Positions 27,161 to 42,272 of a DNA stretch of 64,000 bases are shown piece after piece. Positions within the stretch are counted from its first letter, which is position 1; each line of letters starts with the position of its first letter. Source of the DNA: an uncultured Acidobacteriota bacterium (GTDB taxonomy: Bacteria; Acidobacteriota; Thermoanaerobaculia; UBA5066; Gp7-AA6); assembly GCA_963805495.1 (NCBI GenBank), contig CAWDUQ010000001.1, positions 429,409-493,408 on the forward strand, read 5' to 3'. A program made the position numbers and the translations under genes. Under the pieces are notes generated by a model. It made no database searches. It was given only the letters and a program-made list of their open reading frames with translations, and was not told where the DNA came from.

Positions 27161-27236
27161 TTCTTTACGCGGGATTCACGCGCTTCTCGCCGGCGGCGGT
27201 GCACTCTCGCCGTCCACCCGAAGGAGGAGCGCGAGG

Positions 27237-27434
27237 ATGCGAAACACGAGATCCATGGAATGGACCTGCCCGAAGTGCCGCACGCGGAACGCCCGGCCGA
27301 TTCCGGGGAACACGCCGGAGGGCAAGCTCATCGCCGTCCGCTGCGAGTCCTGCGGGGCCGCGTACTACGCCACGGCGATCGTGCGCACGCCGCCCGGCCG
27401 GCCGACCGCCGTTTACGGGGTGACCTGGGTCTAG
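27237..27434 (+). CDS. Small zinc-ribbon protein (copy A)
   Basis: AAGGAGGAG RBS; WTCPKC...CESC...YGVTWV; paralogues at 34546 and 37721. Confidence 0.75.
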   Translation: MRNTRSMEWTCPKCRTRNARPIPGNTPEGKLIAVRCESCGAAYYATAIVRTPPGRPTAVYGVTWV

Positions 27435-27591
27435 CTTTCCGTCGCCCGATTCTCGCCCCCGGCCCTCCCTGCTCCCCATCCCGGTCCTGGTTGCGTTATT
27501 TTTGGAAGGTCCCACCGGGAAGCGCAGCTCTTTGTCGTCTTGAGTCGGGGGTGCGAATCGGGACCCAATTACGGTCCCCGGGGAGGAATCG

Positions 27592-28773
27592 ATGAGCACG
27601 CGAACGACGAAGATTTGGTTCTGGGCGGCGGTCCTCGCGGCCCTCACGGCCGGAGTCGCGGCGGCCGGCAGCGGGGCATCCGGCGGAGACCGAAGCGACG
27701 CCCGATCGGCGCCGGAGCCGGCCGCTCCGGACAACCCGTTCGGTCCTCCACCCTGCACCGGCCAGGTGTTCGCGGACGTCACGTGCACGACGCCCTTCGA
27801 TCCCTGGATCGAGCTGTACGCGACCGACGAGATCACCGGGGGATGCGGCGGCGGCCTCTATTGCCCCGGCAACCCCGTGACGCGGGCCCAGATGGCCGTG
27901 TTCGTCGAGAAAGCGATGCGGGGAACGGCGTCGTGGAGCCCGGGCAACCTCGGCAATCGGAACACGGGTCTCGGGGCCTCGGCGCTCTTCAACAATGCGA
28001 CGGCGGGCGGGAACACGGCGATCGGCCAGCGCGCGCTCTTCGTTCAGTCGTTCGACAACAACGGGGGAGCCTGGGATTCCCTCAACACGGCCATCGGCCT
28101 GCAGGCCCTGGCGGACAACGAGCCGACGAGCACCGCTAACGGATACGGCAACACCGCCGTCGGCGCGTACGCCATGAACCTCAACACGACGGGGTTCCGC
28201 AACACGGCCCTCGGTTGGAGCGCGGGAGCGCGCGAGGGCCAGATGGTCACGGGATATGCGGGTTCCGACGTCGCGCTCGTGGCCAATCAGACGGGGAACT
28301 ACAACACCTTCGTCGGGCCGTCGGGCTCCACGACCCAGGTCGACAACTGCACCGCCGTCGGGGTGGACGCCTACTGCGACGGCACGAACCAGGTTCGCCT
28401 GGGCAACTTCTTCGTCAGCTCGATCGGCGGCAAGGTTGCGTGGAGCGCCCTCTCGGATGCCCGGGCGAAATCGGACATCCGGGACCTCGACCGGGGTCTC
28501 GATCTGGTTCTGGCACTGCGCCCGGTGTCGTACCGGTACAAGGGCGGCAACGGGCGAACCGACCTGGGCTTCGTCGCCCAGGACGTCGAGGAGCTGCTGG
28601 GCGACGGCTACAACGTCGTCGACGCCGGCGGCGACGCGGACCGCACGCTCTCGCTGCGTTACGCCGAGCTGATCGCGCCGCTGGTGAAGGCCGTCCAGGA
28701 GCAGCAGGCGCAGATCGAGGCCCTGCGCGGGGAGATCCGCGCCCTGCGGGGCCACGGCGCGAAGAGCGACTGA
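27592..28773 (+). CDS. Secreted fibre protein: single SLH-like repeat + NTAxG repeats + Peptidase_S74 chaperone (copy 1)
   Basis: Signal peptide; FADV...WIE...ITGGCGGGLYCPGNPVTRAQMAVF; NTAIG/NTAVG repeats; LSDARAK...LRPVSYRYK...GFVAQDVE...LRYAELIAPLVKAVQEQQ. Confidence 0.85.
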   Translation: MSTRTTKIWFWAAVLAALTAGVAAAGSGASGGDRSDARSAPEPAAPDNPFGPPPCTGQVFADVTCTTPFDPWIELYATDEITGGCGGGLYCPGNPVTRAQMAVFVEKAMRGTASWSPGNLGNRNTGLGASALFNNATAGGNTAIGQRALFVQSFDNNGGAWDSLNTAIGLQALADNEPTSTANGYGNTAVGAYAMNLNTTGFRNTALGWSAGAREGQMVTGYAGSDVALVANQTGNYNTFVGPSGSTTQVDNCTAVGVDAYCDGTNQVRLGNFFVSSIGGKVAWSALSDARAKSDIRDLDRGLDLVLALRPVSYRYKGGNGRTDLGFVAQDVEELLGDGYNVVDAGGDADRTLSLRYAELIAPLVKAVQEQQAQIEALRGEIRALRGHGAKSD

Positions 28774-28820
28774 GGGAAGACGGGCAGCCGCCGCGATTCG
28801 TCCGCGGCAACGAGACTGGG

Positions 28821-29252
28821 TCAGACCGTCTTGGTCATCCTGACGTGAGGGACGGTGAAGTCGACATATTCGCCGCCGACCACGGTGTAGCCCAGCTGTT
28901 CGTAAAACCCCTCGGCCGACGTGCGGGCGTTGAGTACGAAACTGTTGAAGCCGCGGCCCTGGAGATAGTTCTCGAGTTCACTCATGATGCGCCGCCCCAG
29001 CCCTTTTCGCTGATGTGAGGGCGAAACGGCCATCTGCCGGATCCTGGCCTCGGTGGGCGAGAGCCTGACCGCAACGACACAGGCCAGGAGGTCCTGGCTC
29101 GGCCCGAACAAGCCGAAGTGCAGCTGATTCTGCTCGCCGGTCAAGTCCTCGGGTCGCAAGGGAAGACCCAGGGGCCGGCGAAGGACTTCCTCCCGAAGCC
29201 GGCATTCGAGCTCGTACTCCGGTGTCCCGAAGATGATCTCTCTGAACTTCAT
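28821..29252 (-). CDS. GNAT N-acetyltransferase (ElaA/YjcF-like)
   Basis: LREEVLRRPLGL, RIRQMAVSPSHQRKGLGRRI, NARTSAEGFYEQLGY, PHVRMTK. Confidence 0.88.
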   Translation of the reverse strand: MKFREIIFGTPEYELECRLREEVLRRPLGLPLRPEDLTGEQNQLHFGLFGPSQDLLACVVAVRLSPTEARIRQMAVSPSHQRKGLGRRIMSELENYLQGRGFNSFVLNARTSAEGFYEQLGYTVVGGEYVDFTVPHVRMTKTV

Positions 29253-29464
29253 GGCCTGGACCGACGGGCGACGTGGCCAACGGTGCGGCCGAGGCGGCCC
29301 GGTTCTGCCCGAGCGATCGGACGGGACGGACGCGCGGGCCCGCCTCGCCTGGAGGAGCCACCCCGTCCGCGAACCGCGGACTTCAGCGAAGCGCTCGCGC
29401 TCCTGGTGGAAGCCATGCCCGTGAGCAAGCCATGTGCAACGGTGCCGTCGAAGCTCTTTCGAAC

Positions 29465-31822
29465 CTACGGCGCAACGTTGTTCAGCGGCAGCTGGAACGT
29501 CTTCGTCAGGAACACCGCCATCTGCCCGCGCGTGACCGGATTGCCCGGACAGTAGAGCCCGCCCCCGCATCCGGCCGTGATCCCCTCGCCGACGAGCGTA
29601 TTCACCCAGTCGACGAACGGGCCCCCCGGGCAGGGCTCGTCCGTGAAGACCGTCGCCGAGCACGACGGCGCGACGTACGCCCCCCCATGCTCGCCCTTGA
29701 GGAGGAAGACCGCCATCGCGCCCCGGCTCACCGGTGCTCCCGGACAGTAGTTTCCACCGCCGCAGCCGCCCGTGATCCCCTCGGCCGCGAGCTGGTTGAC
29801 CCAGTCCACGTTCGGGCCGCCCGGACACGGCACGTCGGCGAAAACCGTCGCCGCGCAGGCGGGAGGCACGTACGTTCCGCCGTGCTCGCCCTTCAGGAGG
29901 AAGACCGCCATCTGCGCCCGGGTCGTGTTGGACGTCGTGCAGTAGTTGCCGCCTCCGCACCCGGCCGTGATCCCGTTGTGCAGCGCCGTCTCGATGAACT
30001 TGTAGAACGGGTCCGCGATCGGCACGTCGGCGAAGCTTCCGCCGATGTGCACGATCCAGCGGATGGCGGAGTGGTCGTCGAGCGTCTCGTCGATGCCGAA
30101 GTCCCAGTGGAGCGAGGGACGCGGCACCGCGAAGCTCAGCCCGAACTGGTAGCACTCGCCGGTCGCGTCGAAGCAGTTCGCGGACGCGCCGTCGGCAACC
30201 GTCCCGTAGTCTCCGATCGCGTGCGCCGGGTAGCCCAGACCGTCGTCGTCCTGGAACTGGGGCGTGAACCCGTGCAGCAGGAGAGGCGCCCCCGTTCCGT
30301 TGTGCCAGGTCGGCTCGACGTTGATGGTCTCGCCCCGCTCGAAGACGCCGTTCCCGTTCGAGTTGTTCGTGGCGTGGACGTCCGTACCGAGCGACACGGG
30401 CGTCAGGCCCGGCGGAAAGTCCGTCGTGCACGCGGAGCCGACAGTCGTGATGTCCTCCGCCGAGATGTCGAAAGTGCCGGGCGGCGTGTTCGTCACGCTC
30501 GCGAGGCTCACCGTCGCCGAGCTCAGCGTCGCCGCCACGGCCGCGCCGTCGGAGACGGTGACGTTCGCCGTGTTGGTGATCTCGCCGAGCAGGCACCCCG
30601 TGAACTCACCGTCGGGGCCTACGCGCAGCAGAGTGTCTCCGATGACCTCGTCCGGGTAGTTCGCGCCGTTGCCGGCGACGGTCACCGAGCCGTCGGCTTC
30701 GGCGGTCACGCCCGTGAAACGCATGTAGAAGTTGAACCCCGGGCTCTGGAACTGCTTCGCCCAGATGAGCGCGCCGTCGGTCGAGGAGATTTTGTAGATC
30801 GACGCGGGGTTGTTGTCGGCGCCGGCGAAGACGAGGTTGTGGTCCGGCGTCTCGGTGATCGCGCCGAGGAAGTTGAACTGGGTCAGGTAAATCTTCTGCC
30901 AGTCGATCGTGCCGTCGGCGTTGAGGTGCAGGACGAGGTTGCCGAGCACGCCCCCGCCGAAGCTGGTGCCCGCGAGGATGAAGGTTCCGTCGGTCATCTG
31001 GAGGACGGCGGTCGGTACCCACGTGAAGCCCGCGACGTGATACGCCTTGTCGAAGATCGGAGTCCCGTCGGAGTCCGTGCGGATCAGCCGGTACATCCCG
31101 TCGGTGCCGTCGCTGTAGGTGGCCGCGATCGCATACCCGTCGTCGGGCGACGTGCGCACGACGGACACGGCGTGCGTCTGCACCTCGGAGGAGTCGGTCG
31201 GGTAGTACTTGGCCCAGAGCGCATGGCCGTCGCCCGAATCGATCCCGACCAGGCTCGCCCAGGGGAGGTTCGTGTCGTTCGCGTTCGGGCCCGCCCACGC
31301 GCCGGCGACCGCGTAGCTACTGTCGCCCGCTTCGGCGATCGAGAGCCCCTCCGTGAAGAAGCCGTCCGCCCCCGCGCCGTAATACGCCTTGTTCCAGAGA
31401 ACGGTGCCGAGAGGGTCGAGCTTCACGAGCCAGACGTTGTTGACGATGTTGGTCTCGAAGACCGCGTCGTGCGAGGAGTCCTCGAGGATCGCGTGCGGAT
31501 AGAGGCCGCCTCCGCCAACGCTCTGGATCGTCGTGAAGCTTCTCTGGTACTCGACGGTCCGTGTCGAGTCCACCTTGCTCACGACGATGGCGCAGCAGTT
31601 GTTGTGGCCCGGCTGGGAAGGTTGCGGGTTCAGGTCGTTCGACAGCCACAGCCATCCGCCGTCGAACGACTTCACCATGCCGATCGCGCCGGTCCCGCCC
31701 TCGGCGGCGGAGCTGAACGGCTGTCCGTAGAAGTTGACCCAGGTCTCGAGCGGTTGAGCGTGTGCCGAAGGAGCGCGGAGGAAGAGAAGGAGAGAGCCGA
31801 CGAGCGCCGACCTCTTGAGCAC
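29465..31822 (-). CDS. Secreted surface protein, propeller-like repeats plus three C-terminal SLH-like repeats
   Basis: GGAGGTG RBS + GTG; repeats WLVKLD..G..LW.K.Y; three GITAGCGGG.YC...TR.QMAVFL-type units. Confidence 0.85.
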   Translation of the reverse strand: MLKRSALVGSLLLFLRAPSAHAQPLETWVNFYGQPFSSAAEGGTGAIGMVKSFDGGWLWLSNDLNPQPSQPGHNNCCAIVVSKVDSTRTVEYQRSFTTIQSVGGGGLYPHAILEDSSHDAVFETNIVNNVWLVKLDPLGTVLWNKAYYGAGADGFFTEGLSIAEAGDSSYAVAGAWAGPNANDTNLPWASLVGIDSGDGHALWAKYYPTDSSEVQTHAVSVVRTSPDDGYAIAATYSDGTDGMYRLIRTDSDGTPIFDKAYHVAGFTWVPTAVLQMTDGTFILAGTSFGGGVLGNLVLHLNADGTIDWQKIYLTQFNFLGAITETPDHNLVFAGADNNPASIYKISSTDGALIWAKQFQSPGFNFYMRFTGVTAEADGSVTVAGNGANYPDEVIGDTLLRVGPDGEFTGCLLGEITNTANVTVSDGAAVAATLSSATVSLASVTNTPPGTFDISAEDITTVGSACTTDFPPGLTPVSLGTDVHATNNSNGNGVFERGETINVEPTWHNGTGAPLLLHGFTPQFQDDDGLGYPAHAIGDYGTVADGASANCFDATGECYQFGLSFAVPRPSLHWDFGIDETLDDHSAIRWIVHIGGSFADVPIADPFYKFIETALHNGITAGCGGGNYCTTSNTTRAQMAVFLLKGEHGGTYVPPACAATVFADVPCPGGPNVDWVNQLAAEGITGGCGGGNYCPGAPVSRGAMAVFLLKGEHGGAYVAPSCSATVFTDEPCPGGPFVDWVNTLVGEGITAGCGGGLYCPGNPVTRGQMAVFLTKTFQLPLNNVAP

Positions 31823-32066
31823 GGAATCACCTCCTGCAAAAGCGAAAGCGGGCAGACAATATCAGAAGCAAAACCGGAGATCACAATGCCGGCCGGGCCG
31901 TTTCAGGGCTCCACGGGTCGTATGTCGTCGAATTGCTTCGTCAAACGCAGCGACGAACGTAATAGGATTTCTCTCGGCCGTCCCGGAGATTTCTGTTCGC
32001 ACGTTTGTGTGGGCTTCGGTCCAGGGAGCCCTTTGCGAGTCGGATGGAGCCGAGCAGGAGGTTGCC

Positions 32067-33995
32067 ATGACGCGTCGCCACAGACTTGCCACGCTGTTCG
32101 CGGCCGTTCTTTTGGGCCTGGGGGCGGAGGTCGCCTCGGCGCAGACCTACACGGACCTGTACCACCTTTCGGACGTCGCGAATGGGGACGGTTCCCACCC
32201 CCGGGGTCCGCTGACCGTGGAGGAATCGTCCGGCCAGGTCCTTCTCCATGGAACGGCCGCGTACGGGGGTCAATCGGACGCCGGTACCGCGTTTTCGTAC
32301 GTCGTGGCCTCGGGTACGTACTCGAGCCAGTCGTTCGACGGGACGAACGGGCAACTGCCGATGGGGGGCGTTACTCTGACGTCTTCCGGGCTCTTCGGCA
32401 CGGCTTACCAGGGCGGGGGCTCGAGCCTCGGGACGGTGTGGGCCGGCACCAGCGGACTTCAGGCGATCCATACCTTCGCAGGGAGCGGCCAGGGATCCTC
32501 TCCGGCTGGACCGCTGCTCGCGCTATTGGATCCGACCACGTTCTGGGGCACGACGTCCGATTCCATGACCGGTGTCGTCTTCCGGATCAGCTTCGATCCC
32601 ATCGGCGGCGGCTGGATCTACACGGTTCTTCACCCATTGGACCCGATCAACCATTCCTTTTCGGGCCTCATCCAGGCGTCGAACGGGTCGCTCTACGGGA
32701 CGACGTCCAACACTGCCTTCCGCATCGACCCCGACGGCTCGAACTTTGCCGACGTGGGTCCTGCGCTCGCAGATCAATACAATTTCACGCTCCTCCAGGC
32801 GTCCGACGGGTACCTGTACGGTCGAGGCGACCATGAGATCTTTCGGATGGATCTTTCCGGAGGAAACTTCTCCGTCCTCCGAACCTTGAGTGTCGCGGAC
32901 GGTCATGACTTCGGACCATTCGGGGGCGCGCTCCTCGAGGGGTCGGATGGCCTTCTCTACGGAACGAATGACACGGGCGGCGCCAACGGGCTCGGCACCA
33001 TCTTTCGAATCGGCAAGGATGGCAGCCATTTCGTGGTCCTCCACGACTTTGCCGGCCCGGAAGGCTCGGGATCCTCGAGCGGTCTCGTGCGGGACTCGGC
33101 TGGGCACTTCTACGGGACCGCGTCGGGAGGCGGGGATCACGGCGACGGCGTTATCTTCCAATTCGATCCAGCCCCGGGGCCGTGGGTCATCCAGTTGATT
33201 CCGACGGCGGGACCCGTCTTCGTCGAGCCCGGCGATCCGGTCCAGGTCGTCGGGCAGTTTTTCCCGGCCTCGTCGGGCCTCTCCGTCGGAGGCCTTCCGT
33301 CCAACGCGATCAGCGTGCCGGACGACCAGCACATCAGCGCGAACACCCCGCCCGGGCTGAACCCGGGCACGCTCAACGACGTCGTCGTCTCGGACCCCGA
33401 CACCGGGGCGGTCGGAGTGCTCAAGGAAGGCTGGTTCGCCGACTTCCTCGACGTTCCGGGCTCAACCCTCTTCCACGGAGGCGTCGAATCGATCGTGAGA
33501 GCGAAGATCACTGCCGGCTGCGGCGGCGGCAACTTCTGCCCGACGGCTCCTGTCACGCGGGCCCAGATGGCCGTCTTCCTCTTGAAAGGGGAGCATGGCT
33601 CTGGCTACACGCCGCCGCCTTGCACCGGCATCTTTTCGGACGTGTCGTGTTCGGCGACGCCCGACTTCGCGGCGGACTGGATCGAGCAGCTATACGGCGA
33701 GGGCATCACCGCTGGCTGCGGGCCCGACATCTACTGCCCGACGAACCCGGTTTCGAGGCAGCAGATGGCAGTCTTCCTGCTCAAGGCCGAGCACGGCGTC
33801 GGCTACGTTCCACCGGCCTGCGCCGGCGTTTTTGTCGACGTCCCTTGCGGGACGCTCTTCGCAGACTGGATCGAAGAGCTCTACGCCGAGCAGATCACGG
33901 GTGGCTGCCTCATGAACCCGTTGAGCTATTGCCCCCTGGCCTCGGCTTCGCGAGGCCAGATGGCCGCGTTTCTAACGAAGGTTTTCCAACTCTGA
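32067..33995 (+). CDS. Secreted protein with GloVer-like tandem repeats, IPT-like domain and three SLH-like repeats
   Basis: AGGAGG RBS; LYGT..GG..G.GTIFRI...F.VLHDF repeats; three C-terminal SLH-like units. Confidence 0.85.
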   Translation: MTRRHRLATLFAAVLLGLGAEVASAQTYTDLYHLSDVANGDGSHPRGPLTVEESSGQVLLHGTAAYGGQSDAGTAFSYVVASGTYSSQSFDGTNGQLPMGGVTLTSSGLFGTAYQGGGSSLGTVWAGTSGLQAIHTFAGSGQGSSPAGPLLALLDPTTFWGTTSDSMTGVVFRISFDPIGGGWIYTVLHPLDPINHSFSGLIQASNGSLYGTTSNTAFRIDPDGSNFADVGPALADQYNFTLLQASDGYLYGRGDHEIFRMDLSGGNFSVLRTLSVADGHDFGPFGGALLEGSDGLLYGTNDTGGANGLGTIFRIGKDGSHFVVLHDFAGPEGSGSSSGLVRDSAGHFYGTASGGGDHGDGVIFQFDPAPGPWVIQLIPTAGPVFVEPGDPVQVVGQFFPASSGLSVGGLPSNAISVPDDQHISANTPPGLNPGTLNDVVVSDPDTGAVGVLKEGWFADFLDVPGSTLFHGGVESIVRAKITAGCGGGNFCPTAPVTRAQMAVFLLKGEHGSGYTPPPCTGIFSDVSCSATPDFAADWIEQLYGEGITAGCGPDIYCPTNPVSRQQMAVFLLKAEHGVGYVPPACAGVFVDVPCGTLFADWIEELYAEQITGGCLMNPLSYCPLASASRGQMAAFLTKVFQL

Positions 33996-34080
33996 CGGGA
34001 GTGACTGGTTCGAGGTCTTGCTCGTTCCAGGCGGCCTCTACGAGAGCGTAGCCCTCCGGTTCCGCCGGACCCGAGAAAAA

Positions 34081-34126
34081 TGGTGCGCCCGGCGCGATTC
34101 GAATGCGCGACCTTTAGCTCTCGAGG
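34081..34126 (-). repeat. Duplicated 3' part of tRNA-Arg(CCG), att site of island 1
   Basis: 43/46 identical to 45494-45539. Confidence 0.85.
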
Positions 34127-34545
34127 GGAGAGCGGCGACGAGCCGACGACACGGACGACAGCCGAGAGTAGACCAATCAAGGTCGTTCTGATTCCCCGCT
34201 CCAGTAGATGGTCTTGTCCTTGCCGCCGGCGGTCTTGACGACCATCGACTCATCGAATCATTCGAGGCCTGACTGGAACGCCACGAGGCTTCGACACGAC
34301 GGCATTCCCTTTCTCGGGCGAGGGTCCGCGTTGTGCGGGAAGGGCTATTCGTCGGCCCGGCCACCTTGCTCCCCGCTGATGCCGAAGGAAACGCAACGGC
34401 TTGACTCGGGCCACCGTCCATCGCTCGCGGCTCTGAACTCGATCGAAACAAACGATTGGAACCGGCTCGGGCGGCCGCACATGATCACGGCTTGGAGATT
34501 CGAGTCTCGCGGGATGTCTTCGGTCTCGTTAACGGCGGAGGGTTG

Positions 34546-34731
34546 ATGGAAATGAGTTGGACCTGCCCCAAGTGTCGGTCTCGGAATGCGACGATCATCG
34601 CTCGCGATGCCGAGGCCGGGAAGATCGTCCAAGTCAGCTGCGCCCCCTGCGGGGCACAACACGATGCTTCCGTCTTCTTTCCGTCCACGAGACACGGGGG
34701 ACCCATGACTGTCGGTGTCGTCTGGGTCTGA
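34546..34731 (+). CDS. Small zinc-ribbon protein (copy B)
   Basis: GGAGG RBS; MEMSWTCPKCRSRNA...CAPCG...VGVVWV. Confidence 0.75.
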   Translation: MEMSWTCPKCRSRNATIIARDAEAGKIVQVSCAPCGAQHDASVFFPSTRHGGPMTVGVVWV

Positions 34732-34866
34732 AGGCGCCTGCCTGAAGGACCCGGCATTTGAAGGATCGGTTCGGCAAACCCTTGGGCCGCCCGAGCCTGG
34801 GGCCCGGTCCCCCACAGAAACTCTCTCGGCCGAGTCCTCGAGCGGGTATGCGAAAGGAGCCCTGCC

Positions 34867-35145
34867 ATGACAATGTCACTACCGGAACTCCTGGTTCTCA
34901 TCGTGATCGCGGCCGTTTGCGGCGCCATCGGAAAGGCCATTGCGGGCAGCGTTCGTGGTGGGCTGATCGTCTCGATAGCTCTTGGCTTCGTCGGGGCACT
35001 TCTTGGGCCCTGGGTTGCCCGGCTGCTCAAGCTCCCGGAGCCTCTCATGGTCACCGTCGGCGGACATCCATTCCCGGTCCTGTGGTCCATCATCGGTGCC
35101 GCCCTTTTCGTGGCGATCATTCACCTGGTCTCCCGACGGAGGTAA
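34867..35145 (+). CDS. GlsB/YeaQ/YmgE (transglycosylase-associated) stress membrane protein
   Basis: AAGGAG RBS; three TMs; GLIVSIALGFVGALLG, SIIGAALFV. Confidence 0.85.
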   Translation: MTMSLPELLVLIVIAAVCGAIGKAIAGSVRGGLIVSIALGFVGALLGPWVARLLKLPEPLMVTVGGHPFPVLWSIIGAALFVAIIHLVSRRR

Positions 35146-35369
35146 GCGCGCAGGTCGAGGGCCGGGCACGTTCCCATAGGCCACACCAGGTTGCCAGACC
35201 GGGTCGCCACGAGCTCTGTAGCCTGGCAGCAGCTTCAGCCTCGGGCGTCTCCGAGACGCCGCACTTTTCACGTCTCAAATCGAGCGGAACAAACGATTGG
35301 AAATGGTTTGACAGAGCGCACATGCTCACTCTGCGGATTGAGAGACTTCCGGATTAGAAGGGACAAGAT

Positions 35370-35450
35370 ATGGGAACCATCGTTATCGTTCTTTTGGTGC
35401 TTCTTCTTCTCGGTGGCGGCGGATATTGGTACCGCGGCAGACGTGTATGA
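35370..35450 (+). CDS. 26-aa single-TM peptide, DUF3309-like
   Basis: Below the ORF-track cutoff: MGTIVIVLLVLLLLGGGGYWYRGRRV. Confidence 0.65.
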   Translation: MGTIVIVLLVLLLLGGGGYWYRGRRV

Positions 35451-35511
35451 CGAGGCCGTTGGACCGTAGGGAGTAGAACCCCTGCAATTTCACGAAACAG
35501 CGAGGAACTCC

Positions 35512-35715
35512 ATGAACCGAAATGAACTGGAAGGCAAGAAAGAGGCGGTCAAGGGCCGCGTCAAGGAAGCCGTGGGCGTACTGACGGGCAACAAGAAACT
35601 CGAATCGGAAGGCGCCAACGAGCGAGCGGAGGGTGCGGCCCAGGAACGGATTGGGAAAGCCAGTCGCAAGGTCGGCGAAGCGATCGAGGATCTCGGCAAG
35701 AAGATCAAGCGCTAG
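35512..35715 (+). CDS. CsbD family stress protein
   Basis: GAGGA RBS; EGKKEAVKGRVKEAVGVLTGNKKLESEG...EGAAQERIG. Confidence 0.9.
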   Translation: MNRNELEGKKEAVKGRVKEAVGVLTGNKKLESEGANERAEGAAQERIGKASRKVGEAIEDLGKKIKR

Positions 35716-35894
35716 GCTGCGCCGCCGGCGGGTTCAAGGTCGCTTTCTTCCGAGTCCTTCAACCAGGCCCGGGACTCCACCTTTTCCCCCTGGATCGGGC
35801 GCCACGGATCCCGCGACATGTCGTTTTGGTTGAAACCCGACGATCGACCGAACGTCGAATGCGGCCGCAAATATTTGTTTGGAGGCACCAGGTC

Positions 35895-36455
35895 ATGAAA
35901 AGGGTAGCAACGGGTTTTCTGTCGCTGATGAGCATAGGTCTGCTTTGGGTGGGCGGCGCCTCAACGGCGCGCGCGGCCGAAGTCCCGAAAGCCCCTGCTT
36001 CGGTAGAGGTTTCCGAGGCTCTGAAGGCCCTGTCCGTCCAGTCCAAGCTAATCGACAAGCTCGGCGCCGACGCCCTTGGGATCACCGTTCACGTCTCCGG
36101 GGAAACCGCGACTCTGACCGGCGAGGTGGCCAGGAAGTCCAGCCAGAAGCTGGCCGAAGCCGTGGCTCTGTCGGTCGAAGGTATCAAGAAGGTCGACAAC
36201 CAGGTGACGGAGGAGACGACGCCTGCAGCTCTTGCAAACGCCGAAGCCAACGTGAAGGACACGGTTCTCCTGACCAGGGTGAAGACCATGCTTCTGACGG
36301 AGATCGGCGTCAACGCTTTCAAGATCGACGTCGACGTCACCAATGGCATCGTCAGCCTTCGGGGGAAGCTCGGCGATGCGGGGATCAACAGGGCGGCGAT
36401 CGAGAAGACCCAGTCGATCGAAGGCGTCAAGAAAGTCATAAACCTGCTGGACTGA
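35895..36455 (+). CDS. Two-BON-domain (OsmY-like) protein
   Basis: GGAGG RBS, signal peptide, two I.V.V..G.V.L.G...VEG.KKV.N repeats. Confidence 0.88.
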   Translation: MKRVATGFLSLMSIGLLWVGGASTARAAEVPKAPASVEVSEALKALSVQSKLIDKLGADALGITVHVSGETATLTGEVARKSSQKLAEAVALSVEGIKKVDNQVTEETTPAALANAEANVKDTVLLTRVKTMLLTEIGVNAFKIDVDVTNGIVSLRGKLGDAGINRAAIEKTQSIEGVKKVINLLD

Positions 36456-36529
36456 CGTCCGGTGGTTGCCACCAGGCCGCGCTTACACCTCGGCGCATCG
36501 GGCGATGCTGCCGGCTACTCGGAGGAGCC

Positions 36530-36745
36530 ATGGACGAGACTCGCAATCGTGAAGGTTCGAGTGAGGAGGCGAAGCAGCCGAATCCTCGAGATGCTCAAGG
36601 GTTCAAGGAGAATCCGGCGCCCCGGGGACTGAAGACGCCGCCTCCCCTCGAGAAGGGCGAGGAGTCAGGCGAATGGACGCGAGGCGGGGGTTCTGACCCG
36701 AATGAGGGTGAAGGAGCGGCTCAACAGAAGCCTTCAACGACGTAG
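36530..36745 (+). CDS. Small hydrophilic hypothetical protein
   Basis: GGAGGAG RBS; 71 aa, charged/Gly/Pro-rich. Confidence 0.55.
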   Translation: MDETRNREGSSEEAKQPNPRDAQGFKENPAPRGLKTPPPLEKGEESGEWTRGGGSDPNEGEGAAQQKPSTT

Positions 36746-37194
36746 CTGCGCTCTCGATTTGCTTCGAGGTACACGTATGCCCGTCGAGGCCCTGTCGGAC
36801 TCCACGGGCGAATGCCGCGAATCCTCTCGTCTTCTCCAGGGCGTGGGCTGTTCTTCGGCCTTGTCCTTTCTGGTAGCACGCCGCTGGCGAAGCGCCGCCC
36901 ACCAGGCGATCCTTCAGGGGCCGAGCGAGGCGGGCGTTGATCGTTGCTTCGTTGAAAGTCAAGCGAAAGAAACGATTGGACGGTATGAACTTCGACCGCT
37001 GACAATGGCGATATCACCCGGCTTAACCCGGGAACTCATCCAAAAGCCGCGAGTCCCGCACTGGGGGCGTTAGCGGCCCTTCCTTGTTCTGCTCCCACGA
37101 GGCATGGCAATGGCCCGGTGCAACAGATGCGCTCGACAGTGGAGTCCCGCCGTCACCAAGCCCTTCGAGGGCCGACCGAAACGCGGCGAGGCAA

Positions 37195-37278
37195 GACATG
37201 CGAGAAATCCTGCTCAAGGTCTAGGTGCGCCTCGCTGCGGAGGCAGGGAAGCCCTCCAACGTTGTCCCGCTCCGCAAA
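37195..37278 (+). pseudogene. Relic of tyrosine-integrase C-terminus (island 1)
   Basis: DMREILLKV*VRLAAEAGKPSNVVPLRK, homologous to 45312-45427 and at the same position next to an att site. Confidence 0.5.
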
Positions 37279-37331
37279 CCCGGACCAAACACGGACACTC
37301 GTGGCTCGGAGGCGGGGGAGGGGTCGTCTAG

Positions 37332-37371
37332 GTCCTCGGGAAAAGTGGTGCGTCCTCGGGAAAAGTGGTGC
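37332..37371 (+). repeat. 20-bp perfect tandem duplication at the att junction
   Basis: GTCCTCGGGAAAAGTGGTGC x2. Confidence 0.85.
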
Positions 37372-37411
37372 GCCCGGCGCGATTCGAACACGCGACCTTT
37401 AGCTCCGGAGG
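37366..37411 (-). repeat. Duplicated 3' part of tRNA-Arg(CCG), junction between islands 1 and 2
   Basis: 45/46 identical to 45494-45539. Confidence 0.9.
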
Positions 37412-37720
37412 GGAGGACGGGGAGAAGCCCACGACACCTGACGACAGGTCAGAGTAGATAACTCAACGAGTTAGCTCATCGTACCTGTCGTGAGATTCCG
37501 TCCGTTGTCGTCAAGACACGGAGAAAACACGGAGAATCTGGCGAATCAACGCCGGCTCAGGAGCGTCATCTCAAAGTCGACTCGAGAGGAAAAGTGCCGA
37601 CAGCGGTCGTCTTACCGGCGGGATCGTGCTTTGTCAGAGAGTTCGCGTCTTCCACACAGATTTTTCACCCGTTACGACATATGGACAGTCTCAACCCCTG
37701 ACCAAGTCCACGCCTGCCAG

Positions 37721-37867
37721 ATGATGACCGACTTTCCGGCCAACACGCCGGACGGCAAGCTCGTCGCCGTCACGTGCGAGAGCTGCCGGGCCGATTACTT
37801 CGCCACGGCCGTCGTTCGCACCCCGCCCGGCCAGCCGACCTCGGTGTACGGGGTGACCTGGGTCTAG
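37721..37867 (+). pseudogene. Zinc-ribbon protein copy C, lacking the N-terminal CPKC
   Basis: PANTPDGKLVAVTCESC...VRTPPGQPTSVYGVTWV closely matches copy A, but the first CxxC is absent. Confidence 0.6.
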
Positions 37868-38082
37868 CGGTCCTTCTCGCCCTGGAAGAAGCGTTCTTCG
37901 AACCTTCCGAACCTTCGCGGCCGGATGGCTGCGGCGCCCAATCTCCGTTCCGCCCGGAGAGGACGAGGTCCTGCCGGGCCCGATTGCGCTATTTTTGGAA
38001 GATCCCACGGGGAAGCGCAGCTCTTTGTCGTCGGGAGTCGAGGGTGTAAATCGGGACCCGTCATGGTCCCCGGGAGGAGTCG

Positions 38083-39309
38083 ATGAGCGCACGAACGACG
38101 AAGATTTGGTTCTGGGCGGCGGTCCTTGCGGCCCTGACGGCCGGCATCGCGGCGGCCGGCAGCGGGGAGTCCGGAGGAGACCGAAGCGACGCCCGATCGG
38201 CGCCGGAGCCGGCCACTCCGGCCGCTCCGGACGACCAGTTCGATCCTCCGCCGTGCACCGGTCTCTTTTTCGCGGACGTCACCTGCACGACGCCTTTCGA
38301 TCCCTGGATCGAGCAGTATGCGACCGACGAAATCACCGGAGGCTGCGGCGGCGGGCTGTACTGCCCCGGAAACCCCGTGACGCGGGCGCAGATGGCCGTT
38401 TTCGTCGAGAAGGCGATGCGGGGAACGGCCGGGTGGAGCCCCGGAGATCTCGGCCACCAGAACACGAAGTTGGGGTCCCTGGCGCTGTCGAACAACACGA
38501 AGGCGGGGGGCAACACGGCGATCGGCCAGCGGGCGCTCTACGTGCAGTCGTACGACAACAACGGGATCACGTGGAACTCCGTCAACACGGCCATCGGTGT
38601 GCAGGCGCTGGCGGTCAACGAGCCGACGAGCACCGGGACCGGGTTCGGCAACACGGCCGTCGGCGCGTACAGCCTCAACGGCAACACGATCGGGTTCCTC
38701 AATACGGCGGTCGGCTGGGAGGCGGGTGCGCCCGGGGGCCGAATGATCGCCGGCTATGCGGGCACATCCGTCATGCTCGTTTCGAACGAGACCGGCAACT
38801 ACAACACCTTCATCGGGCCCTCGGGCGCCACGACGCAGGTCGATAACTGCACCGCCGTGGGGATCGACGCGTACTGTGATGCGACCGACCAGGTCCGCCT
38901 GGGAGACTTCTTCGTCAACTCGATCGGCGGAAAGGTCGCGTGGAGCACCCTCTCCGACGCCCGGGCCAAGTGGGACGTGCGGGAGCTCGAGCAGGGCCTT
39001 CCGCTCGTTCTCGCGCTTCGGCCGGTCTCGTACCGCTATCGCGGCGGAAACGGAAAGGCCGACATGGGCTTCGTCGCGCAGGACGTCGAGGCCCTCGTCG
39101 GCGACGGGTACAACCTGGTCGATGCCGGCGGCGATTCCGACCGGACGCTTTCGCTGCGCTACACGGAGCTCATCGCACCGCTGGTGAAGGCGGTGCAGGA
39201 GCAGCAGGCGCTGATCGAGGCGCAGGGCGGCGAGATCGAGAGCCTCCGCGCCGAAGTCAGGGCTCTGACGCGCGGTCGTCCGGAAGGGGCGCCAGCGCCC
39301 TCGCCTTAG
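38083..39309 (+). CDS. SLH-like + NTAxG repeats + Peptidase_S74 fibre protein (copy 2)
   Basis: Same architecture as copy 1; near-identical N-terminus; LSDARAK. Confidence 0.85.
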   Translation: MSARTTKIWFWAAVLAALTAGIAAAGSGESGGDRSDARSAPEPATPAAPDDQFDPPPCTGLFFADVTCTTPFDPWIEQYATDEITGGCGGGLYCPGNPVTRAQMAVFVEKAMRGTAGWSPGDLGHQNTKLGSLALSNNTKAGGNTAIGQRALYVQSYDNNGITWNSVNTAIGVQALAVNEPTSTGTGFGNTAVGAYSLNGNTIGFLNTAVGWEAGAPGGRMIAGYAGTSVMLVSNETGNYNTFIGPSGATTQVDNCTAVGIDAYCDATDQVRLGDFFVNSIGGKVAWSTLSDARAKWDVRELEQGLPLVLALRPVSYRYRGGNGKADMGFVAQDVEALVGDGYNLVDAGGDSDRTLSLRYTELIAPLVKAVQEQQALIEAQGGEIESLRAEVRALTRGRPEGAPAPSP

Positions 39310-39411
39310 CCAGGCGAAGCGGATTGTTCGGAGACGAGAGACAACTCACTGCGTCCTGAGAGGTTTCAGGGCGTGAATCGGAACCGAAAGAGGGTTCCGG
39401 GTGGAGGAGTG

Positions 39412-40710
39412 ATGATCGGTCGACGGATGCAGGTCTGGCTTGGCGCAGCGGTTCTTCTGATACTGGCTCCGGCGGCGACGGAGGCCCAGTCGTCCGGCCC
39501 CGACAATCCCTATGTCCCGCCGCCATGCGCGGGCAACGTGTTCGCGGACGTCACTTGCACGACGCCTTTCGATCCCTGGATCGAGCAATACGCGGCCGAC
39601 GAGATCACCGGAGGCTGCGGCGGCGGGCTCTACTGCCCCGGGAACCCCGTGACGCGGGCGCAGATGGCCGTTTTCGTCGAGAAGGCGATGCGGGGAACGG
39701 CGGCGTGGAGCCCGGGGGACCTCGGCTACCTCAACACTGGACTCGGCCGACATGCCTTGATCAGCAACACGACTGGCATGCACAATACGGCCGTCGGCGG
39801 CGACGCCCTGGGCTCTCAATCCTTCGACAACGGGGGTTCACTTTGGTTTGCCGACAATACGGCGGTCGGCTGGAGCGCGCTTGCTTTGAACCAGCCGACG
39901 GCGACGTCCAACGGGGCGCTCAACACCGCCGTCGGATCGCAGGCCCTCAGCAACAACGTGATCGGCCATTCCAACACGGCGGTGGGATACAACAGCCTCG
40001 TCACTAGCAAAGGCTTCGACAACACGGCGATCGGCAGCACCGCCGGCGCCCGAACGGAAGCGATCACCGGCTACGCCGGGTCATCGGTCCAGCTCCAGCG
40101 ACTCCAGACCGGCAACTACAATACGTTCGTCGGGATCGCGGGCGCCACGGCGCAAGTCGACAATTGCACCGCCGTCGGCATGGATGCGTACTGCGACGCA
40201 ACCAACCAGATCCGCCTGGGCAACTTCTTCGTCACCTCGATCGGAGGGAAGGTTGCCTGGAGCACGCTATCCGACGCGCGGGCCAAGCAGGATGTCCGCG
40301 ACCTCGATCACGGCCTTGCTCTGGTGCTGGCGCTGCGCCCGGTGTCGTACCGGTACAAGGACGGGAACGGTCGCACGGATATGGGATTCGTGGCGCAGGA
40401 CGTGGAGGCGGTGCTGGGCGACGGCTACAACGTCGTCGACGCGGGCGGAGACGCGGATCGGACACTCTCGCTGCGCTACGCCGAGCTGATCGCACCGCTC
40501 GTCCGGGCGATTCAGGAGCAGCAGGCGCTGATCGAGGCGCAGCGGCGGGAGAACGACCGTCAGAGCCGGAAGATCGAAGCACTGGAGGCGGGGCTCACTG
40601 AAGTCGATACGCTTCGGATGCAGATCGAACGCCTCATGGAGAGCGCCAGTCTTCGGGCGTCAGGGGCGCCGGTTCGGGCCGAACGAGGGACCCAGGGAGG
40701 AAATCGATGA
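39412..40710 (+). CDS. SLH-like + NTAxG repeats + Peptidase_S74 fibre protein (copy 3)
   Basis: GGAGGAG RBS; different signal peptide, extra repeat, longer coiled-coil tail. Confidence 0.85.
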   Translation: MIGRRMQVWLGAAVLLILAPAATEAQSSGPDNPYVPPPCAGNVFADVTCTTPFDPWIEQYAADEITGGCGGGLYCPGNPVTRAQMAVFVEKAMRGTAAWSPGDLGYLNTGLGRHALISNTTGMHNTAVGGDALGSQSFDNGGSLWFADNTAVGWSALALNQPTATSNGALNTAVGSQALSNNVIGHSNTAVGYNSLVTSKGFDNTAIGSTAGARTEAITGYAGSSVQLQRLQTGNYNTFVGIAGATAQVDNCTAVGMDAYCDATNQIRLGNFFVTSIGGKVAWSTLSDARAKQDVRDLDHGLALVLALRPVSYRYKDGNGRTDMGFVAQDVEAVLGDGYNVVDAGGDADRTLSLRYAELIAPLVRAIQEQQALIEAQRRENDRQSRKIEALEAGLTEVDTLRMQIERLMESASLRASGAPVRAERGTQGGNR

Positions 40711-41924
40711 GCTCGAGACGAATGACGGGTTGGCTCGGGTCGCTGATCCTCTCGATTCTGGCAGTCGGTCCCGCGGCAGCCCAGACTTCTGGCGAGGGCT
40801 CGCTGCCGGGATCCGTCGCGCCATCCGGCCCCGACAATCCGTACGTTCCGCCGTCCTGTGCGGGGAACGTCTTCGCCGACGTCACATGCTCGACGCCTTT
40901 CGACGCCTGGATCGAGCAGTACGCGGCCGACGAAATTACCGGGGGCTGCGGCGGCGGTCTCTACTGCCCGAACAGCCCCGTCACGCGTGCCCAGATGGCC
41001 GTGTTCGTCGAGAAGGCGATGCGCGGCACGGACACGTGGAACCCCGGAGATCTGGGCGGAAACAATACCGGCCTCGGGGAAGGTGCGCTTTATGCGAACA
41101 CTCGGGCGCTGGGGAACACGGCGCTGGGCGCTTCCGCTCTCGTCAACCAGTCGTTCGACAACGGAGGGTTCGGATGGTCGACCTACAACACGGCGGTCGG
41201 GGTCGATGCGCTCTTCTACAACCAGCCGACCAATACGTCCAACGGCCGGGAAAACACCGCGGTCGGCGCGAACGCACTGACCAACAACACGACCGGGTTC
41301 TACAACACCGCCGTCGGGTCCCTGGTTCTGGGCTACAACGAAACCGGGTTCCGCAACACCGCGATCGGCTGGCATGCCGGCGCCCGCGGCGGCGACGTGA
41401 TCACCGGCTATTCGGGATCGAACGTCACTTTCATCAACAACCATGACGGCCTCTACAACACTTTCATCGGACCCGCGGGATCGACGACCGAGGTCAACAA
41501 CTGCACGGCGGTCGGAATGGATGCCTACTGCTCCGCGGCGGACCAGGTGCGGCTGGGCAACTTCTTCGTCACGCCCATCGGGGGCAAGGTGGCCTGGAGC
41601 ACGCTTTCGGACGCCCGTGCAAAATCGGATGTCCGCGAGCTCGACTACGGCCTCGATCTCGTGCTTGCCCTCAAGCCGGTGTCATACCGGTACAAGGGCG
41701 GCAACGGCCGCACCGACATGGGTTTCGTGGCCCAGGACGTGGAGAAACTCCTCGACGGCTACAACGTCGTCGACGCGGGCGGCGACTCGGACCGGACCCT
41801 TTCCCTTCGGTACACGGAGCTGATCGCGCCGCTGGTGAAGGCGGTACAGGAGCAGCAATCTCAGATCGAGGCCCTGCGCGAGGAGATCCGCATGCTGCGG
41901 GCAAGCGGAGCGAGGAGCGACTGA
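40707..41924 (+). CDS. SLH-like + NTAxG repeats + Peptidase_S74 fibre protein (copy 4)
   Basis: ATGA overlap with copy 3; C-terminus matches copy 1. Confidence 0.85.
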   Translation: MSSRRMTGWLGSLILSILAVGPAAAQTSGEGSLPGSVAPSGPDNPYVPPSCAGNVFADVTCSTPFDAWIEQYAADEITGGCGGGLYCPNSPVTRAQMAVFVEKAMRGTDTWNPGDLGGNNTGLGEGALYANTRALGNTALGASALVNQSFDNGGFGWSTYNTAVGVDALFYNQPTNTSNGRENTAVGANALTNNTTGFYNTAVGSLVLGYNETGFRNTAIGWHAGARGGDVITGYSGSNVTFINNHDGLYNTFIGPAGSTTEVNNCTAVGMDAYCSAADQVRLGNFFVTPIGGKVAWSTLSDARAKSDVRELDYGLDLVLALKPVSYRYKGGNGRTDMGFVAQDVEKLLDGYNVVDAGGDSDRTLSLRYTELIAPLVKAVQEQQSQIEALREEIRMLRASGARSD

Positions 41925-41961
41925 GCGGCCGATTGCCCGCCGCGGCCGTTACAAGCGACCG

Positions 41962-42207
41962 TCAGAGGCTCCTGGTCATCCTGACGTGCGGGACGGTCAC
42001 GTCGACGAACTCTTCGCCGGCGACCGTGTACCCCAGCCGTTCGTAGAAACCCACGGCCGACCCATCAGAGCCCATGGGGGGAGAGGGTTCGAAAGAATTT
42101 CGCGAGCCAGCAATAGCGAAAAGGGCAACCACATCTGCATAGAGTTGGTTGAGTAGCGCGAAGATCCAGAATAGAGACAACCGCTCCCTTGTGTCGTGCA
42201 TATCCAC
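41962..42207 (-). pseudogene. Chimeric remnant: DUF6326-like N-terminus fused to GNAT C-terminus
   Basis: RERLSLFWIFALLNQLYADV, then SAVGFYERLGYTVAGEEFVDVTVPHVRMTRSL, homologous to the end of 28821..29252. Confidence 0.65.
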
Positions 42208-42272
42208 CTCCTACGGAGTATCCCCCGACCCTCTCGTTCCATCCGCCGCGGGACGAACGCCTGGCTCCGTCC

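Follow-up and report, generated by a model that had tools for sequence, protein, structure and literature searches.

Four paralogous acidobacterial genes that join one SLH-like unit to a phage-type, S74-bearing shaft: candidates for exported trimeric fibres with a predicted three-chain anchor

We analyzed a 64,000-nucleotide stretch of the genome of an uncultured member of the Acidobacteriota (GenBank assembly GCA_963805495.1, contig CAWDUQ010000001.1, positions 429,409 to 493,408; hereafter the window), in which four paralogous genes, all on the plus strand, encode proteins that have the makings of exported trimeric fibres. The window is chromosomal and has a G+C content of ~70%; the host genome (4.44 Mb, 98% complete, six contigs) has Acidobacteriota metagenome-assembled genomes as its nearest public relatives, and some database homologues are labelled Thermoanaerobaculia. 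Each of the four open reading frames (ORFs) combines a signal-like N-terminus, one Cys-rich unit of the surface-layer homology (SLH) type, NTAxG repeats, and a Peptidase_S74 domain with the motif SDARAK, an architecture that had been proposed in a first-pass annotation and that Pfam, our own hidden Markov model (HMM), and the alignment all bear out. Copies 2-4 share 70-80% identity with paralogue 1. The four genes, and the parts of the first, are the following:

27592..28773, plus strand: fibre paralogue 1, 393 aa (from the ORF, Pfam, the alignment, our own HMM, and an AlphaFold2 [AF2] model)
aa 1-25, followed by a linker: signal-like segment of paralogue 1, judged by eye
aa 47-112 (nt 27730-27927): SLH unit of paralogue 1
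aa 113-124: neck of paralogue 1
aa 125-280 (nt 27964-28431): shaft of paralogue 1, modeled as a beta-roll
before S288 (nt 28453): predicted cleavage site of paralogue 1
aa 288-393: S74 chaperone and C-terminal helix of paralogue 1
38083..39309, plus strand: fibre paralogue 2, 408 aa, with the architecture and shaft length of paralogue 1, to which it is 80% identical
39412..40710, plus strand: fibre paralogue 3, 432 aa, whose shaft has one more repeat and whose C-terminal helix is longer
40707..41924, plus strand: fibre paralogue 4, 405 aa, likewise with one more repeat in the shaft

Paralogues 3 and 4 (39412-40710 and 40707-41924) overlap at the stop of the one and the start of the other. Paralogue 3 has an alternative GTG start at 39373; the public protein P0007 is the 432-aa form that starts at 39412.

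By eye, all four N-termini read as signal peptides, with basic residues, a hydrophobic run, and an Ala-rich end. Helices are predicted at 70-78 and 98-110 of the N-terminal module, an SLH unit of ~60 aa. Each of the four paralogues keeps all six cysteines, and an even number is what disulfides outside the cytoplasm would lead one to expect. An HMM built on ten units of six window proteins, and iterated over all stop-to-stop ORFs of the genome, finds exactly one unit per fibre (82-86 bits) and three in each of the two secreted neighbors encoded at 29465 and 32067, as the first-pass annotation had noted. Built into a profile, 88 homologues of the fibres find the SLH chain 8bz2, the trimeric stalk of Veillonella OmpM1 (PMC10628300), with E = 2.3e-3 across aa 49-103. 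According to the same report, the ligand residues of SLH are the Trp, the Gly, and the Arg of the TRAE motif. Their counterparts, W72, G84, and R98 (motif TRAQ), do not vary among the 88 homologues, with the proviso that the equivalence of W72 is one of position in the motif and not of column, the Trp lying one helical turn off in the HMM alignment. Compared with the three-unit proteins of the genome, the fibre unit has a mean identity of 59.8% to second units, 56.5% to third units, and 46.9% to first units, and is as near to the second and third units as those are to each other. The upstream Cys is found in 4/4 fibres, in 57/82 second and 66/82 third units, and in 1/82 first units. Judged by its sequence, the N-terminal unit of the fibres is an SLH unit, both in family membership and in its ligand residues.

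The shaft is the most confidently modeled part of the protein. In the AF2 monomer, computed with the 88-sequence alignment, the predicted local distance difference test score (pLDDT) is 86-97 across the shaft (aa 121-280) and 54-89 across the S74 part. When the shaft was compared with 48,161 chains by VIA-align, the heads of trimeric autotransporters ranked at the top: EibD (Z = 12.8), UspA1 (Z = 12.4; root-mean-square deviation [rmsd] 2.7 A over 118 residues), YadA (Z = 11.5), and BoaA (Z = 11.4; rmsd 2.3 A over 114 residues, 29% identity), with generic left-handed beta-helices at Z = 7-8. Pfam recognizes no head family in the fibres at E <= 0.1, and the ESM Atlas returns S74 clusters only, at 0.88, which is under the 0.9 level counted as more than a lead. 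On the model, the shaft is a YadA-like head, that is, a left-handed parallel beta-roll.

Peptidase_S74 (PF13884) is found in all four proteins at 39.5-56.1 bits (cut-off 22; E from 7e-10 to 5e-15), at aa ~288-349, and these four genes are its only matches in the genome. The domain begins at aa 288 of 393, C-terminal to the beta-roll that resembles trimeric adhesin heads, and a long C-terminal helix is predicted at aa 357-392. SDARAK is present in 4/4 paralogues in the alignment, where the NTAxG repeats are also visible. Residues S288, D289, R291, and K293 are invariant in the 88 homologues; among the 120 best matches, the commonest forms of the motif are variants of SDxRxK, and across this region the 88-homologue profile matches the solved tail-fibre chain 8jov (E = 1.3e-4). 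On this motif, autoproteolytic release of the S74 domain is predicted before S288.

If the shaft is trimeric, three SLH units would be brought together at its other end. For the complex prediction, three copies of aa 47-124 were modeled with an 88-row alignment, in three runs and with three controls. The SLH-unit trimer has an ipSAE of 0.83 in 3/3 runs, and the best of the three controls reaches 0.00; the mark was reached in calibration by 20/30 solved pairs and 1/23 single chains, a calibration that was made with two copies and other alignments and so holds only roughly for a trimer. Partner pLDDT is 82-83, at least 81% of contacts are common to the runs, and helix 95-112 touches residues 67-82 and 90-96 of the neighboring chain; in the monomer AF2 model the same region (aa 23-113) is disordered, with pLDDT below 56. 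Three single SLH units are predicted, then, to pack into one three-fold module. This favors the proposal of the first-pass annotation that three chains complete one anchor, although not its view of how they do so: since the SLH unit alone is predicted to trimerize without S74, chaperone-driven assembly of the anchor is a step that we infer and that the prediction does not require.

The genome offers many SLH proteins for comparison. In a census with our HMM, 136 ORFs carry the Cys-rich unit: 84 have three units, 44 have one, six have two, and two have three plus a partial unit. (Pfam SLH alone gives 137 matches among the 150 of 287 candidates scored in the genome.) The 84 proteins with C-terminal triples include propeller, PKD, and GloVer "choice-of-anchor" passengers. 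This is a very large SLH proteome for a diderm, and the triples often stand in long tandem gene arrays (e.g., C4:658398-675528 and C1:1037149-1131769). The single-unit class is more mixed: it comprises the four fibres, at least 24 small secreted-looking proteins without S74 that carry the unit at the extreme C-terminus, and, for the remainder, fragments or frame-broken pieces. The small proteins show that the expectation of three units in every protein without S74 is false. They also bring about the situation that the first-pass annotation had named as counting against its proposal, single repeats that are equally common without S74, given that only four of the 44 single-unit ORFs are fibres.

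The small single-SLH proteins are a family of their own. One of them (L009:70-789, or G000:C2:29270-30058) has at least 23 paralogues of ~240 aa and at least 4363 relatives, all of ~240 aa and with one SLH unit. They are modeled as a jelly-roll with pLDDT above 90 (aa 35-170), the C-terminal SLH unit being disordered in the monomer model. The fold agrees best with the monomeric CBM6/35/36 modules (TM-target 0.61-0.65) and less well with trimers of the TNF family (about 0.4); because these matches are ambiguous, we make no claim of trimerization for these proteins.

The other half of the proposed rule, one unit wherever there is S74, fares better, in that no relative examined has more than one. 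Of 240 relatives of the fibres, 89 carry a single SLH unit and 151 carry no unit at all; chains with two or three are absent. The 120 best relatives of similar length account for nearly all of the positives (88 with one N-terminal unit, 32 with none, of which about 14 are truncated gene calls, and none with two or three); the 120 best relatives of 689-2000 aa include one with one unit, 119 with none, and again none with two or three. By sequence, the SLH-S74 fusion falls among the exported "tail fiber domain-containing" proteins, a very large family with swapped N-termini. In a sample of the phylum, 41 of 301 genomes match somewhere; just two of them, this genome and one of the same genus, match over the full length, the others by shaft and S74 alone or by SLH alone. 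The fusion is therefore restricted to this lineage.

Shaft and S74 domain have their homologues among phage proteins. Both match phrog_4636 ("tail spike"; E from 2e-33 to 2e-36), and 160 phage records, such as SPO1 gp2.52 and Pelagibacter phage HTVC112P, match the fibres at 30-35% identity over aa ~106-386 (~270 aa). All 160 matches begin at aa ~106-121, none reaches the N-terminal 105 residues, and none covers 80% of the query. With the likeness limited to shaft and S74, the fibre can therefore be described as a phage-type module whose N-terminal end has been replaced. The surroundings of the genes bear on whether it is also part of a phage:

24596..27160, plus strand: MASE1-PAS-GGDEF-EAL signalling gene upstream of paralogue 1, a conserved upstream neighbor of fibre genes
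27258..27434, plus strand: small zinc-ribbon-like ORF, 58 aa with two CxxC pairs, directly upstream of paralogue 1
27481..27566, plus strand: 86-nt leader upstream of paralogue 1, conserved ahead of paralogue 2 (37974-38059) at 87% identity
29465..31822, minus strand: secreted protein of 785 aa with three C-terminal Cys-rich SLH units, a comparison case and not a fibre
32067..33995, plus strand: secreted protein that combines GloVer repeats (TIGR03803, 133.5 bits) with three SLH units at its C-terminus, also a comparison case
37724..37867, plus strand: N-terminally truncated copy of the zinc-ribbon-like ORF, upstream of paralogue 2

Could the four genes be tail fibres of a prophage, a tailocin, or a contractile injection system that is encoded elsewhere or has decayed? 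The phage matches just given would fit such an origin, as would the tRNA-like direct repeats nearby, at 34072 and 37357; we nevertheless consider it extremely improbable. A signal-peptide-like N-terminus followed by an SLH unit is unfit for cytoplasmic assembly, and it is exactly these N-terminal residues that no phage match reaches. A phage-structural Pfam family was found in none of the 35 window proteins scanned, which upholds the earlier observation that the window lacks phage genes, and in none of 23 neighbors of the relatives in four related loci (L001-L004), so that these four loci do not show the location in prophage tail operons that the first-pass annotation had set against its own proposal. 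The 98%-complete genome gave no tail-sheath match. What the repeats flank is a 3.3-kb island of stress genes and not the fibres. Finally, the place beside a GGDEF-EAL gene is kept in three related genomes: such a gene precedes the fibre gene in the window (24596-27160) and at L001:6902-9505 and L003:4319-6883, and its EAL part does so at L002:8077-9618.

The repeats themselves are 81 nt long and 85% identical (34072-34152 and 37357-37437), and they resemble the 3' end of a tRNA gene; ARAGORN finds no tRNA there. Between them lies a 3.3-kb stretch of lower G+C content (61%) with CsbD, Transgly_assoc, BON, and zinc-ribbon genes, which looks like an old integration site. We considered the repeats as marks of a prophage carrying the fibres and rejected this, as only the CsbD, BON, and Transgly_assoc island is flanked. 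An IS200-like transposase is encoded at 3124-4089 of the window.

A scan of IMG/VR yielded no SLH-S74 fibres; three loci matched the SLH part only. In one of them, a 447-aa protein (L014:7851-9194) has three Cys-rich SLH units (82.5 bits, three stretches) and a weak Phage_tail_L C-terminus, and it stands in a phage tail module with a tape-measure-like protein, DUF2460, and a Phage-tail_3 host-specificity protein; this phage seems to use the same type of anchor at its tail tip. On another contig classed as viral, a 677-aa protein resembling FAD-dependent oxidoreductases (L015:7221-9254) has SLH-like units in its middle.

From the domain content, the catalytic motif, the shaft fold, the predicted SLH trimer, and the absent phage context, all of them shown by computation, we arrive at a preferred reading to which we give a probability of roughly 0.55: the genes encode exported homotrimeric fibres, folded and then trimmed by way of S74, that are held on the wall glycan by a three-chain SLH module and serve in adhesion or recognition. 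Each gene would yield a Sec-exported chain that forms a short homotrimeric fibre. The C-terminal Peptidase_S74 domain, acting as an intramolecular chaperone, would align three chains and fold the YadA-head-like beta-roll, which by analogy with YadA-type heads is estimated to be roughly 5-8 nm long. The chaperone would then cut itself off before the Ser of SDARAK, through a Ser288-Lys293 dyad, and so expose the distal tip. At the base, the N-terminal SLH units of the three chains would pack into one three-fold module, through which the fibre would be held on a glycan of the cell wall that is probably pyruvylated. The polarity would be that of a phage tail fibre, from N-terminal base to C-terminal receptor-binding tip, a signal peptide and a cell-wall anchor having taken the place of the virion-attachment end. 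Adhesion or recognition would be the likely role, and the variable shafts might provide four specificities. Export, cleavage, ligand, cell-surface exposure, and function are in this scheme what we infer from the computed parts.

Several results weigh against this reading. When the full model is compared with the PDB by Foldseek, nothing is found at E <= 0.001, the best match being the BoaA head (probability 1.00, E = 5.9e-3). The score of the SLH trimer expresses likeness and not binding, and since SLH trimers have already been solved (SlpA, OmpM, and three-repeat SLH domains), it may reflect memory of those structures. As to the ligand, a CsaB-like pyruvyl transferase encoded 7 kb upstream of the window (G000:C1:421207-422197, L013; PS_pyruv_trans 91.4 bits) may speak for the reading, but the CsaB model itself matches in two frames with 152.5 and 48.8 bits, below the NCBIfam cut-off of 213.1; the split is either a frameshift or a sequencing error. 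In the fibres, Pfam SLH (PF00395) stays at 14.2-18.6 bits, under the cut-off of 20.8, and the match runs from position 15 to 44 of a 44-position profile, so that "SLH-like" is the right word; the neighbors score 57.3 bits in three stretches (29465-31822, minus strand) and 34.6 bits (32067-33995, plus strand). Lastly, the host evidently has an outer membrane, judging from the proteins of the window, and the fibres have no evident route across it.

The partial, sub-threshold Pfam match invites the thought that the N-terminal unit is a degenerate SLH, serving as a trimer cap or folding nucleus only, with the fibres released into the medium or bound to another partner. A unit that is predicted to self-trimerize would work as a cap, and Veillonella VtaG is kept in place despite having lost SLH binding (10.64898/2026.01.22.700529). 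A remnant of this kind seems very unlikely, however, for a unit in which the equivalents of the ligand Trp, Gly, and Arg are invariant in 88 homologues, which resembles the second and third units of the triples no less than those resemble each other, and which is the most conserved part of the paralogues.

The outer membrane raises the more serious doubt. The window surroundings include a TolC-like OEP, HlyD, MacB, and TonB-type barrels, from which we take the host to be a diderm, in addition to a PadR regulator and the MASE1-PAS-GGDEF-EAL protein. "Surface" is the weakest link in calling these proteins surface fibres, because in the diderm cases SlpA (PMC9388160), OmpM (PMC10628300), and the Veillonella adhesins (10.64898/2026.01.22.700529) the SLH part is described as periplasmic. 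The same molecule might thus stay in the periplasm, its SLH module binding a peptidoglycan-linked polymer from the inside, in the manner of OmpM and SlpA, and its short shaft projecting within that compartment as a spacer, scaffold, or envelope-stress element and not an adhesin; that the fibres have a Sec-type N-terminus alone, with no beta-barrel, lipobox Cys, or recognised sorting signal, would suit this. On balance we regard a periplasmic location as possible but rather unlikely. The 84 SLH-triple proteins of the genome, with their propeller, PKD, and GloVer passengers, look surface-located; the MAT fibres of Bdellovibrio, also a diderm, reach the surface with a signal peptide only (PMC10769870); the SLH triple in the phage tail-tip protein from IMG/VR hints at an SLH ligand that is accessible from the cell exterior; and variable phage-type shafts suit recognition better than scaffolding.

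The paralogues differ most in the shaft. Their identity to one another is 80-92% in the SLH unit, 80-88% in the S74 core, and 55-74% in the shaft; to call the anchors and chaperones near-identical, as was first done, overstates the case. Within aa 47-124, 32 of the 37 residues predicted to lie at the SLH interface are identical in all four proteins, compared with 26 of the 41 others. At the nucleotide level, the 5' flank and signal-peptide region of paralogue 1 recur at paralogue 2 (27301-27730 and 37734-38221, 83-92% identity) and its 3' flank recurs at paralogue 4 (28820-28920 and 41961-42061, 80%), a pattern that suggests duplication with recombination among the copies.

As the SLH interface is near-identical and paralogues 3 and 4 are translationally coupled, chains with shafts of equal length (1 with 2, and 3 with 4) could form heterotrimers; surface specificities would be multiplied if they did. 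We can extend this into a joint and decidedly speculative reading, which we think unlikely as a whole. In it, the number of SLH units per chain would encode quaternary structure in this lineage (three for a monomer, one for an obligate trimer), the S74 fibres and the small jelly-roll proteins would both be trimers whose anchor arises after assembly, and chains of equal shaft length would mix. Because phages of these hosts carry a full SLH triple at the tail tip, the same wall glycan might be both anchor site and phage receptor, with the fibres as competitors or decoys.

Some smaller features accompany the fibre genes. The conserved GGDEF-EAL neighbor could mean control of the fibres by cyclic di-GMP, or only shared descent. 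In the window and in two related genomes, the zinc-ribbon-like ORF separates the GGDEF-EAL gene from the fibre gene. It encodes ~58-65 aa without a signal peptide and with a conserved C-terminal YGVTWV, and its Pfam zinc-ribbon matches are weak; whether it is part of the fibre system is uncertain. Its two copies upstream of fibre genes are 83% identical (37734-37876, 143 nt, against 27301-27443), a divergent third copy lies at 34546-34731, and relatives have it at L002:9701-9898 and L003:7801-7998. No sigma-70 consensus was found in the 86-nt leader (27481-27566). A consensus scan around the fibre genes gave no promoters, and a terminator scan gave two terminator-like sites, within coding sequence and no more numerous than in shuffles; Rfam gave no family at gathering score in 26000-43000. 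A look-up of sequencing runs listed none with RNA for 27592-28773. Downstream of the PadR regulator gene, a MacB/FtsX-type permease appears as two ORFs on the minus strand with a 4-nt overlap (42273-43838 and 43835-44899), which may be a split gene or two genes.

If confirmed, the fibres would be a second independent case, after MAT, of bacteria using S74-chaperoned phage-type fibres as their own envelope organelles. The anchor family has a known ligand class, unlike that of MAT, so how the fibres are held on the cell becomes testable. Chains with one and with three units in one genome would make a natural pair for comparing true-trimer and pseudo-trimer anchors. Confirmation would also point to an unusually large SLH-anchored proteome (136 ORFs) in a diderm acidobacterium, and so raise the question of where the ligand sits in such an envelope.

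Among known systems, the phage tailspikes and tail fibres with a C-terminal chaperone (SPO1 gp2.52, HTVC112P) are homologous in shaft and S74, with the same Ser-Lys motif and the same polarity from N-terminal base to C-terminal tip. K1F endosialidase and T5 pb1 are phage tailspike and tail-fibre proteins of this kind, with C-terminal intramolecular chaperone domains. Phage fibres, however, have an N-terminal virion-attachment part and no signal peptide, whereas the proteins described here have a signal peptide and an SLH unit and are encoded outside tail operons. Classical SLH anchors, such as those of Bacillus anthracis Sap and Paenibacillus alvei SpaA, place three units in one chain as a pseudo-trimer. 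The fibres share with them the unit family, a TRAE-like motif (here TRAQ), and, as a candidate, a CsaB-like gene in the genome, but have one unit per chain and two extra Cys pairs (PPxC...DVxC and GCGGGxYC).

One SLH unit per chain in a homotrimer is described for SlpA (PMC9388160), OmpM (PMC10628300), and the Veillonella autotransporters (bioRxiv 10.64898/2026.01.22.700529). OmpM of the Negativicutes and SlpA of Deinococcus resemble the fibres in having one N-terminal unit per chain, from which the homotrimer forms an SLH module; their reports describe porin-tethers with a coiled coil and an outer-membrane beta-barrel in place of our beta-roll shaft and cleavable S74, and neither Pfam nor the AF2 model shows a barrel or porin family in the fibres. 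The Veillonella adhesins (VtaG and others) are likewise trimeric, combining YadA-type head repeats with a single SLH unit in each chain. In them, the unit follows a C-terminal barrel and is periplasmic, and trimerization and export proceed through the type Vc barrel; in the fibres it is N-terminal and S74 would be the trimerization device. Without a C-terminal YadA-type barrel (no membrane-anchor family in Pfam at E <= 0.1, no barrel in the model), the fibre is therefore not a trimeric autotransporter adhesin (TAA).

The closest likeness is to the S74 subgroup of MAT (e.g., Bd3182), the cellular, surface-located, self-cleaving fibres of Bdellovibrio (PMC10769870). In that family, 13 of 21 members end in SDxxxK, cleavage at the motif Ser is blocked by S782A, and members have in common a conserved, beta-rich N-terminal domain of ~130 aa (PMC10769870). 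Both systems are chromosomal and belong to diderms, and both combine a signal peptide, a cell-proximal N-terminal domain, a beta-helical fibre that is trimeric in MAT and probably so here, and a C-terminal SDxxxK S74 domain. Each comes as several paralogues, alike at their ends and varied in the middle or at the tip. They differ in size (about 900-1000 aa and about 55 nm for MAT, ~400 aa here), in the N-terminal domain (beta-rich in MAT, by its description, and here a single alpha-helical SLH unit with a known ligand class), in the shaft, which here is a YadA-head-type beta-roll on the model, and in the host, an acidobacterium with no known predatory habit. In plan the fibres would work like the MAT fibre, yet we do not file them as members, given the N-terminal domain described for that family.

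No publication joining S74 with SLH was found in the searchable literature, a scope that leaves out supplements and most subscription journals; those retrieved on S74 terms concern, judged by title and abstract, phages, injection systems, giant viruses, and MYRF, and in the same literature none surfaced on acidobacterial SLH proteomes. The first-pass annotation had offered the genes as a candidate for an undescribed system. Given SlpA, OmpM, and the Veillonella autotransporters on the one side and MAT on the other, both the principle of one SLH unit per chain and the use of S74 in cellular surface fibres were already known; what is new is the combination of these known parts.

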